From Podospora anserina (taxonomy: Eukaryota), in assembly GCA_017654855.1 (NCBI GenBank), contig CM030333.1:3658001-3722000 (forward strand): DNA of 64,000 bases. Direction: 5' to 3'. The stretch's first letter is position 1; every line of letters starts with the position of its first letter. This document shows, one piece after another, positions 46,606-49,949 of this stretch. A model generated the notes under the pieces. The model was not told the DNA's origin. It worked only from the letters and a program-made list of their open reading frames with translations, and did not search any database. A program made the translations under genes and the position numbers.

Positions 46606-48997
46606 ATGTGCGGCATCTTCGCCTGCCATAGGTCAGTCTCGAACACCTGGTCTTTTCCCTGGCTATCATGAACAATTGCTCGGCATTGGCTCCGTGGTGG
46701 TGACTTGTCAACGACTTTCTGTCCTTGGAGGGGTCAATGCCCCACCACACCACCAAGCCGTTGTCCTTATCGCCGTTATCGCTTCACAAATTCTCGAGAT
46801 CAGCATCAACACCACAGCAAGCATAACGCAGAACGCTAATATGAAGAGCAACCCAGTCACCCAGACGTCGCCAAATTCAAGCCGACTGCTCTGAAGCTTT
46901 CCAAGCAGATCAGACACAGAGGCCCGGATTGGTGAGTCAATCCCTTGCGCAACCCCTCCTGGTAGCTCCAAGACATTTTGTGCTAACTGATTTGATAGGA
47001 GTAAGAATCTCACCCCTGAGTCGGACAAAGACGGATAAACAAGATAAGGAGAAACAATTGGTTTGGCTAACACATTGTCTTCCCACAGGCGGCAGCGTTA
47101 TCTCTAACAACACGAGTACGATAAGGAACCCCAACCCCCCTGGACACATAGAAAACCTCCCACTTTTCTCGAATGTCTTTGAAAGAGCGATGCTAACGCG
47201 GCGCCACAGTTCTGTGCCATGAACGGCTCAGCATCGTCGGTGTTGGTGGGTCTAGATCTGTATATCTGGTTTCGAGGCCGTCGTCTAACCTCAAAGCAGA
47301 GAGCGGAGCTCAGCCACTTACCAATGCCGATGACAGCATTATCCTCGCCGTCAACGGCGAAATCTACAACCACCGTCTTGTTCGCAAGACCTTGAAGACC
47401 CCCTACCACTTCAAGACCACCTCGGATTGCGAGGTTGTGATTCCTCTGGTGAGTCACTGCGAGAGGAGAACTGCGGGGGAGAGCACATGAGATTAACCGG
47501 TGCAACAGTACCTCGAGTATGGCATTGATGCGCCCAAGCACCTCGATGGCATGTTCTCCTTCGTTCTTTACGACAAGAAGAAGGACCGCACAATCGCCGC
47601 CCGCGACCCCATCGGTATCACAACCCTTTACCAGGGCTGGTCCTCCAAGGAGCCCGGCACTGTCTACTTCGCTTCCGAGCTGAAGTCCCTCCACCCCGTC
47701 TGCGACAAGATCGAGGCTTTCCCCCCCGGACACATCTTCGACAGCTTGACTGGCGAGAGGACACGGTACTTTGAGCCCACATGGTGGGATGGCGAGAAGA
47801 TCCCCCAGACCCCTGTCGACCTCAAGAAGCTCCGCGAGACTCTTGAGAGGTCTGTCAGGAAAAGGTTGATGGCTGAGGTTCCTTATGGTGTTCTCCTTTC
47901 CGGCGGTCTTGACTCTTCGCTTGTTGCTTCCATTGCCCAGAGGGAAACCCTGCGCCTGAAGAAGCTTGCAGAGGAGGCCAACGGCGCCGCTGAGGAGAAG
48001 CCTGAGGATTTGGACAAGGGCGAGGGTCTTGTTGGTCTCGATGACGAGGGCAAGCTCTCTACCATGACCTTCCTTCCCCAGCTCAACTCCTTCTCCATTG
48101 GCCTTCCCGGCTCTCCCGACAACGAGGCTGCCCTCAAGGTGGCCAAGTTCCTCGGCACCAAGCACCACGTCATGACCTTCACCATCGAGGATGGTCTTAA
48201 CGCCTTGTCTGATGTCATCTACCACCTCGAGACCTACGATGTCACCACCATCCGTGCCTCGACTCCCATGTACCTGCTCTCTCGCAAGATCAAGGCCATG
48301 GGCATCAAGATGGTCCTCTCTGGTGAGGGTTCCGACGAGATCTTCGGCGGTTACCTCTACTTCCACGGCGCCCCCAACAAGGAGGAGTTCCACACCGAGT
48401 GCGTCCGCCGCGTCAAGAACCTTCACTTGGCCGACTGCCTGCGCGCCAACAAGTCCACCTCCGCGTGGGGTCTTGAGGCCCGTGTGCCCTTCCTCGACAA
48501 GGAGTTCCTCGAGGTGTCGATGAACATCGACCCTGCGGACAAGATGATCAACAAGGAAAGAATGGAGAAGTACATTCTCCGCAAGGCTTTCGACACCTCG
48601 GACGACCCGACCGCCGAGCCCTACCTTCCCGACAACATCCTCTGGCGCCAGAAGGAGCAGTTCTCTGACGGTGTCGGATACGGATGGATCGATGCCCTCA
48701 AGGACAATGCCGAGCTCCACGTCACCGACGAGATGATGAAGAACCCCAAGCCTGAGTGGGGCAGCGATATCCCTGACACCAAGGAGGCCTACTGGTACCG
48801 CCTGATGTTCGACGAGCACTTCCCCCAGTCGTGCGCGTCGACCGTCATGAGGTGGACACCCACATGGTCCAAGCAGACGGATCCCAGTGGCAGGTGAGTT
48901 GAACTTTGGTTCTGAATGGACGCGGTTTGAGAATTGATACTGACGTGGCTTTTACAGAGCTATCTCGATCCATCAGGCCAAGTATGAGGATGCTTAA
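46606..48997 (+). CDS. ASN1: Glutamine-dependent asparagine synthetase; 8 exons (46606-46631, 46857-46931, 46999-47000, 47089-47115, 47210-47245, 47300-47448, 47509-48893, 48958-48997; 579 aa)
   Basis: MCGIF Ntn start, [59 protein letters not shown]. Confidence 0.95.
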
Positions 48998-49949
48998 ATG
49001 TCTTTCCCATCATTTTTGTATATGAGTCATGGCTTCCGGAGGGTCTGGTATCTAGCAGGGCGTCATGTCAAAAGATAGGGTGAGGGATGCGTTGAAGTAC
49101 AGCACAGCTAGCCTGTGAGAATGCAAAAGCTCTGAAAAGTTCATTTTGGTGCAGGGTTTTTGATGGTTGAATTGCCTTGGCAAGGCATATCCGTAGATAT
49201 GCAGGCTGTGAGGTTGGGGGTGATGGGCAGGAGGGAATGCAATGCAGATATCAACCTGATAAAACCTGGGGAAGAAGAGCCAAGCTCTCAAAGCTGGAGC
49301 CAAAGTGTCTGCATAGAGGAAACAGCCGCCAATATGCTTAGCGGATTCATCCACGTGGAGGACCTTGACATAAACTACCACTCTATATGAACAAGGGGTT
49401 CTGTTAAAGGGAACAAACAAATAACTGCCTTGAAAAACATTAAATATAGGTAATGACCAAAAGATTGCTCAGACATGCCATATTTGCATCTGGTTGTTGA
49501 AATAGGTCTCTCAAGTCTCAATATCGTGGATAGACACATACCTGTCGTCTCTCGGGATAGCATACAGATCGGCAGGATGGTCTTTCTTGAGAATCTGGCT
49601 TGTAGACAAAGTAACTGCAACCTCAAGTCAAGCAAATATGAAACAAACGACAGTGCAACTGAGGCAATGCCCCCAAGTCACAACGGCCAAGAGGAAGCCA
49701 TTGACTGATGTGTTTCAAGGGTTAGGGTAATCCCAGGCGATGGCAGCCGTTGCTGCTGGAACTTGGCACTTCCCACCTGGGAGCGATGGCCCAATCACGG
49801 TGGAGAAAGAAATTTGGCAGTTCCGATACTTTACCTTCCCAACATTTCCACGCCTTTCGAGTTCCACCGTCCGACCTAGTCTCTACAAGTTTTCTTGTTT
49901 ACTTTGTTTGCTCGTTATCACCAGTTAAACACACACAATCATCATCAAA

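Follow-up and report, generated by a model that had tools for sequence, protein, structure and literature searches.

Can an exon consist of only two nucleotides (nt), and if so, how does a gene come to have one? The question arises at an asparagine synthetase gene on the forward strand of a 64,000-nt stretch of Podospora anserina DNA (assembly GCA_017654855.1, contig CM030333.1, positions 3,658,001 to 3,722,000). We call this whole stretch the window, and all positions are given in its coordinates. An initial annotation, made from the letters alone, proposed that the bases GA at 46999-47000 lie between two complete introns, each with its own branch point, and its placement of these elements proves exact: GT..AG ends and a GCTAAC motif are present in each intron. 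We conclude with high confidence that GA is a genuine asparagine synthetase exon, and it is included in every transcript contig examined.

Throughout this text, “intron 1” is the intron directly upstream of GA (46932-46998), and introns 2 and onwards follow from there. The gene's own first intron (46632-46856, 225 nt) precedes intron 1.

Transcript evidence for the two bases

A search of sequencing runs listed 24, of which 22 contain the stretch. Sixteen runs contain 69-80% of the sampled words, which is approximately the exonic share, and six contain 100%; the first group is guessed to be RNA, although none of the runs is on record as such. Contigs were then compared from X1, X5 and X9 (studies P1, P2 and P4) and from the fully covered X17.

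In each of X1, X5 and X9, one contig spans the gene with all seven introns removed, with GT..AG ends at the introns away from the GA site and no other letter that differs from the window. At the GA site, a single letter, A, separates 46932 from 47089 in all three contigs. The resulting junction, GATTGG-A-GCGGC (CCGGATTGGAGCGGC), is the one that the initial annotation predicted for complementary DNA, and it is two bases longer than a direct join of 46931 to 47089. X17 is a DNA run that may be the window's own source, and in it a single contig follows the whole stretch colinearly, without a joint. No skipped or alternative product at GA was seen in the contigs of X1, X5 and X9, although contigs drop rare variants.

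We assign the two transcript bases to 46999-47000 because canonical splice signals surround them. Both flanking introns have canonical ends (GTGAGT..TAG and GTAAGA..CAG), and each has its own normally spaced branch point: the distances of 12 and 18 nt fall inside the 11-20 nt found in the gene's other five introns. The string AGGAGT occurs once in the 157-nt interval between the flanking exons, at 46997, and the only AG/GA/GT site there (slashes mark splice sites) is the GA exon.

X1 and X5 each have, in addition, a separate low-depth contig (46602-46884) that runs uninterrupted through the gene's first intron (46632-46856, 225 nt). This unusually long intron is therefore retained in some transcripts or DNA traces of these two runs.

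Gene structure and the need for GA

The gene occupies 46606-48997 on the + strand and encodes a fungal glutamine-hydrolysing asparagine synthetase, with a coding model of 8 exons, 1740 nt and 579 amino acids (Table 1). Its large exon matches Asn_synthase (PF00733, 1.3e-81) and GATase_7 (PF13537, 1.1e-14), and is 88% identical to the N. crassa protein P0020, which in turn matches the E. coli AsnB structure 1CT9 at 1e-177. The model begins MCGIF, with Cys directly after the initiator Met as in class-II glutamine amidotransferase domains. The gene thus has what defines the AsnB/ASN1 type, i.e., an Asn_synthase domain together with an N-terminal class-II glutamine amidotransferase domain whose Cys follows Met. 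All seven introns are GT..AG, with lengths (in order) of 225, 67, 88, 94, 54, 60 and 64 nt. Exons 3 to 5 are consecutively tiny, at 2, 27 and 36 nt.

Table 1. Coordinates of the asparagine synthetase gene and of the elements around its two-base exon
Feature	Positions	Strand	Remarks
Exons of asparagine synthetase	46606-46631, 46857-46931, 46999-47000, 47089-47115, 47210-47245, 47300-47448, 47509-48893, 48958-48997	+	Every junction matched by spliced contigs of X1, X5 and X9
Exon 2	46857-46931	+	Ends CGG CCC(G) GAT TG, the first two bases of the Trp34 codon; from sequence and contigs
Intron 1	46932-46998	+	67 nt, GTGAGT..TAG, begins GTGAGTCA; phase 2 of the Trp codon
Intron 1 branch point, GCTAAC	46982-46987	+	A at 46986, 12 nt before the last intron base
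Two-nucleotide exon, GA	46999-47000	+	Third base of the Trp34 codon and first base of the Ser35 codon
Intron 2	47001-47088	+	88 nt, GTAAGA..CAG; after TGGN, phase 1 of the Ser codon
Intron 2 branch point, GCTAAC	47066-47071	+	A at 47070, 18 nt before the last intron base
27-nt exon	47089-47115	+	GC GGC ... ACG A, encodes (S)GSVISNNT; contigs join both sides
Alternative acceptor, gcggcag/C	exon start 47096	+	In frame without GA; used by some public models, by no contig
TGAGTCA heptamer, Gcn4/CPC1/AP-1-type core	46933-46939	+	Inside the intron 1 donor GTGAGTCA
TGAGTCG, 6/7 match to the heptamer	47017-47023	+	In intron 2, at the place of the conserved CTGAGTCACAC block in the closest relatives' intron

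With GA in place, Trp34 and Ser35 are complete within the motif RHRGPDWSG of the glutamine-amidotransferase domain, a motif that is identical letter for letter in 1CT9 (aligned to the Neurospora homologue). Among the best 120 homologues, 95 read RGPDWSG, two read RGPDWIL and one reads RGPDCIV, while in 22 the N-terminal part is absent or mis-modelled. The initial annotation held that GA is needed for RGPD-W-S-G, and translation bears this out: skipping breaks the frame at Trp34/Ser35, giving RGPDWRQRYL and then a premature stop at codon 40, six codons on. Retention does not preserve the protein either, as translation stops immediately after Trp if intron 1 is kept and also reaches a stop if intron 2 is kept.

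A junction that restores the frame without these two bases was named at the outset as the case that would count against the exon. Such a junction exists on paper: the acceptor seven bases downstream (exon start 47096), used without GA, gives RGPDCVISNNT. It is, however, unused in every contig examined, where the sole joint at the site leads to 47089.

Errors in public gene models

Among database entries, the gene best matches a cluster (90% identity) whose representative, a Triangularia verruculosa protein, is 97% identical over the large exon. Fifteen of the cluster's 27 members were listed, six of them full-length (two from Podospora, two from Triangularia, and one each from Cercophora samala and Apiosordaria backusii); NCBI places cluster members in the families Podosporaceae and Lasiosphaeriaceae. 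The expectation that gene finders miss GA is confirmed for these relatives: among the members listed, none of the six full-length models reads WSGS, and all six are wrong at the GA site.

The errors take several forms. For example, P0123, which is filed for three Podospora species, is identical to our 8-exon model at 577 of 579 residues and differs only at columns 36-41. Its aberrant WSKNLTPD there results exactly when a 21-nt pseudo-exon (46999-47019, donor GTCGGA) and the acceptor at 47096 are applied to the window. P0130 and P0131 read RGPDCVI, i.e., they use the acceptor at 47096; in P0001 and P0129, TG is joined to later acceptors; and P0127 reads WCGS. Together with the cluster match, the near identity to P0123 places the window in a Podospora-type member of the Sordariales. 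The active-site motif is thus damaged in all six full-length models examined for the Podospora group, and studies that use those proteins inherit the error.

These failures are also informative. Five of the six full-length models set a donor directly after TG, which is possible only if GT follows TG, as it does in the window. Because of this, the gene models give indirect evidence that the GA layout is common to the Podospora/Triangularia group.

Other parts of the gene are mis-modelled as well. The 27-nt exon (47089-47115) is skipped in P0049 and P0096 (RGPDWILCHERL). Intron 4 (47246-47299), which at 54 nt is in frame and stop-free, is spliced out in the contigs of X1, X5 and X9 and read through in the public models P0127, P0129 and P0131, and similarly in P0007, P0037 and P0126. 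In P0009, P0059, P0080, P0100 and P0114, asparagine synthetase is fused to the neighbouring ubiquitin-conjugating gene (UBC9-type, PF00179). A mitochondrial porin protein, P0121, is filed in the synthetase's protein cluster, and this looks like a clustering artefact from neighbouring genes.

Age and origin of the flanking introns

A scan of metagenome contigs yielded 80 related fungal loci (67-92% identity). The part that codes for HRGPDW is present in 65 of them; in the remaining 15, the sequence upstream of the large exon is shorter than ~500 nt and does not extend that far. One intron directly after TGGN (Ser phase 1), followed by a 27-nt exon and a further intron, is found in 43 of the 65 loci, and these are the positions of introns 2 and 3. 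The 27-nt exon, with GT after it, keeps its length and position in all 43. The remaining 22 loci are intronless at the TGGN site. An intron after TG, or a two-base exon, is absent from all 65. Conservation of both intron positions had been put forward as a check; the position of intron 2 recurs in 43/65 loci and that of intron 1 in 0/65. A prokaryote genome collection was also searched for HRGPD-TG/GTRAGT, in case it held fungal contaminant contigs, and the 15 matches were all chance ones outside an asparagine synthetase context.

Alignment of the window with 11 of the closest loci gives the same picture, in that intron 2 matches the relatives' single intron and intron 1 is a gap against all 11. 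Intron 2 and the closest relatives' intron have in common a CCCCTGAGTC block ~17-33 nt from the donor (at +17 in intron 2 and at +19 to +33 in the relatives) and a GGCTAACACATTG branch region, and the 3' part of intron 2 aligns with the introns of two loci (L005 and L006). Judging from these comparisons, intron 2 is an old intron that many Pezizomycotina share, and intron 1 is a lineage-specific extra.

We therefore think it probable, by a modest margin over even odds, that the GA exon owes its origin to the insertion of a ready-made 67-nt intron between TG and GA, at a point two bases before the donor of the old intron. The grounds are that the position of intron 2 is common to 43 of the 65 loci and that intron 1 is present in none. 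The insertion would have taken place in an ancestor of the Podospora group.

Several possible traces of such an event were looked for. BLAST of intron 1 against the 64-kilobase (kb) window finds only intron 1 itself, with no hint of a repeated introner-like element. Nothing points to tandem duplication as its source: the best local alignment between introns 1 and 2 covers the branch-point motif only, and 75 of 500 shuffles score equally. A short direct repeat is present (GATTGG at 46927-46932 and GATAGG at 46994-46999), and we give it no weight as an insertion trace, since most of its bases are forced by the splice signals.

Splicing of the two introns

Short fungal introns are recognised across the intron. 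This mode of recognition (“intron definition”) would suffice at the GA site, where both introns have complete signals and nothing special would be needed to define the 2-nt exon. Two U2-type introns, both short and ordinary and both with a complete set of donor, branch point and acceptor, are removed, and the messenger RNA (mRNA) keeps GA.

With only two bases separating the intron 1 acceptor from the intron 2 donor, U1 paired to that donor would cover the acceptor, and simultaneous engagement of the two introns is unlikely. Most likely, then, introns 1 and 2 are removed one after the other, by intron definition, and not together. The mRNA comes out the same whichever intron goes first, which makes a fixed order unnecessary. 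The initial annotation had called for ordered, intron-defined splicing; successive removal is the plausible part of that claim, and the fixed order is the part that falls away. The 2-nt exon model implies the intermediate GATTG/GAGTAAGA if intron 1 leaves first and GATAG/GAGCGGC if intron 2 does. No RNA structure bridging the sites was found, and the fold of 46920-47100 is less stable than shuffles (z = +2.09).

One low-depth contig in X9 (47003-47196) is unspliced: it starts 2 nt past the first base of intron 2, runs on through the 27-nt exon and covers most of intron 3. This contig may be pre-mRNA or a splicing intermediate. It could hint that intron 1 leaves first, but a single contig end cannot show order.

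Alternative explanations

Two alternatives concern the exon itself. The awkward mechanics of splice sites 2 nt apart could suit a regulated switch, in which GA would be skipped under some conditions and the frameshifted transcript cleared by nonsense-mediated decay (NMD), tuning asparagine synthetase output; the premature stop at codon 40 would make the skipped form a typical NMD substrate. The initial annotation had suggested an on/off point of this kind. It finds no support, as the included form is the only one in each of three runs from three studies (a weak argument, given that contigs drop rare variants), and the strong consensus signals in both introns, the lack of special RNA structure (z = +2.09) and the fact that nothing links the GA exon to any condition also speak against it, so we consider such a switch very unlikely. 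Less credible still, and extremely unlikely, is that the extra two bases do not come from 46999-47000 and are instead produced by a shifted TG..AG intron from 46933 with a one-base exon or an added A, or by some other G and A in the interval. The contig layout does put G on 46932 with only A between, at a joint with TG..AG ends, but the placement of G is an aligner's choice between equal fits. A 2-nt exon, by comparison, makes both introns GT..AG with normally spaced branch points and falls on the unique AG/GA/GT of the interval, in a gene whose other introns are all canonical.

The history of the exon also has an alternative, which we rate as unlikely while still taking it seriously. An ancestor with TGGA/GTGAGTCA... 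could have lost GA at the exon end, the frame being saved via a cryptic AG/GA/GT inside the intron. The relatives' TGGAGTGAGTCA minus GA is exactly the window's TGGTGAGTCA, GTGAGTCA donors are present at the orthologous intron in 5 of 39 distinct relatives, and Nelson and Syed propose a scenario of this kind for a Fusarium 1-nt exon (PMC12940212). However, intron 1 lies in a gap against all 11 aligned relatives, and intron 2 alone already has the relatives' full layout (donor, CCCCTGAGTC block and branch region). A 67-69 nt insertion would therefore be needed in any case, and for this reason we rate the loss of GA below the insertion of a ready-made intron.

Some points weigh against our own account of the exon and its history. 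The RNA nature of X1, X5 and X9 is a guess, as no run is on record as RNA, and the evidence consists of contigs instead of raw reads, in which rare isoforms, splicing intermediates and splicing order are invisible. The aligner could place the exon's G in two equally good ways and chose 46932, so the contigs alone do not fix which G and A are used. Intron 1, the proposed insertion, has no copy in the window. Finally, the sharing of the GA exon within the Podospora/Triangularia group is read solely from how gene models fail.

A Gcn4/CPC1-type heptamer in the donor

The intron 1 donor embeds a TGAGTCA heptamer (Table 1), as the initial annotation noted. Gcn4-type factors are known to act on asparagine synthetase genes: the literature includes passages on GCN4 in Ganoderma and a cited ATF4/ASNS paper. 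Yeast ASN1 and ASN2 are a further case. The motif TGASTCA is not enriched in the window as a whole (7 found, 10.7 expected). Three of these seven sites are in this gene (p ~0.002), at 46933 and 47450 in the donors of introns 1 and 5 and at 49023 in the 3' untranslated region.

The orthologous intron of related loci contains TGASTCA in 14 of 39 distinct introns against ~0.34 expected, a count that is inflated by the relatedness of the loci. Among the 11 closest relatives, the motif lies 19-33 nt after the donor in eight, six of which have it inside the conserved CTGAGTCACAC block; several have no second such site within ~6 kb. Five more distant loci carry the heptamer inside the donor as GTGAGTCA, which amounts to five of the 11 GTGAGT donors (p ~3e-4). 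A perfect TGAGTCA in a CTGAGTCACAC-like block of an otherwise poorly alignable old intron can be seen in L002, L003, L005, L006, L007, L028, L029 and L034.

We regard TGAGTCA in this intron as a tentative lead on putative Gcn4/CPC1-type regulation. A more specific version, which we think doubtful, is that TGAGTCA at the head of the intron is a conserved intragenic Gcn4/CPC1-type control element, and that the old copy may have decayed to TGAGTCG at 47017, leaving the new donor GTGAGTCA at 46932 to supply the element now. If this is true, the same DNA stretch would be a transcription-factor site and, in RNA, the 5' splice site to which the 2-nt exon owes its existence. The recurrence of TGAGTCA in this intron gives a starting point for testing whether asparagine synthesis is under intragenic starvation control.

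Comparison with known systems

A search of the open-access and bioRxiv literature found no paper on this asparagine synthetase exon. Exons of 1-3 nt are known from fungi, and the GA exon is a further case of them.

The closest parallel is the one-nucleotide exon that Nelson and Syed (2026) describe in Fusarium CYP621A P450 genes (PMC12940212). As in Podospora, the host is an ascomycete, the ultra-short exon lies between two complete short introns within a conserved protein motif, it is essential for the frame and confirmed by transcripts, and almost every public gene model gets it wrong. It differs in size (1 nt instead of 2 nt) and in gene family, and the asparagine synthetase case has the clearer origin: its 3' flanking intron is demonstrably old, and its 5' one is lineage-specific. 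The long-read annotation of Coprinopsis cinerea contains 57 two-nt exons in 50 genes (PMC12230235), so the exon size is equal, the host is again a fungus and omission usually leads to a premature stop. That species, however, is an intron-rich basidiomycete, and its exons form a genome-wide list that comes without individual analysis, whereas here the exon belongs to an ascomycete housekeeping enzyme for which there are comparative data. The exon of Arabidopsis APC11 is, like GA, ultra-short and frame-essential; it is constitutive, lies in a plant gene and is 1 nt long (PMC4674806).

Two further systems resemble the GA site mechanistically. Stwintrons, which occur in the same subphylum (Pezizomycotina) and are tied to intron gain and shift, likewise consist of two U2 introns so close that consecutive reactions are needed (PMC5639578, PMC5587772). 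Their internal intron, however, splits the donor, branch point or acceptor of the external one, and no base remains in between, so the GA site was rejected as a member of this class: both of its introns have intact signals before splicing, and 2 nt stay in the mRNA. At Drosophila ratchet points, an acceptor and a donor are juxtaposed and upstream splicing regenerates a 5' splice site (bioRxiv 10.1101/006163, PMC8605326). These points subdivide very long introns and leave no base, unlike the GA site, where the introns are 67 and 88 nt and a zero-nt recursive splice site was rejected because two bases are retained.

Set beside these systems, the GA site adds a transcript-backed 2-nt exon in a housekeeping enzyme, in the group that holds the model fungus Podospora. 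An old, widely shared intron next to a second intron found only here makes it a clear natural illustration of the way such exons can come about. Where stwintrons and ratchet points leave nothing between their introns, the GA site leaves two bases, and it is a convenient substrate for asking how the spliceosome handles splice sites two bases apart.

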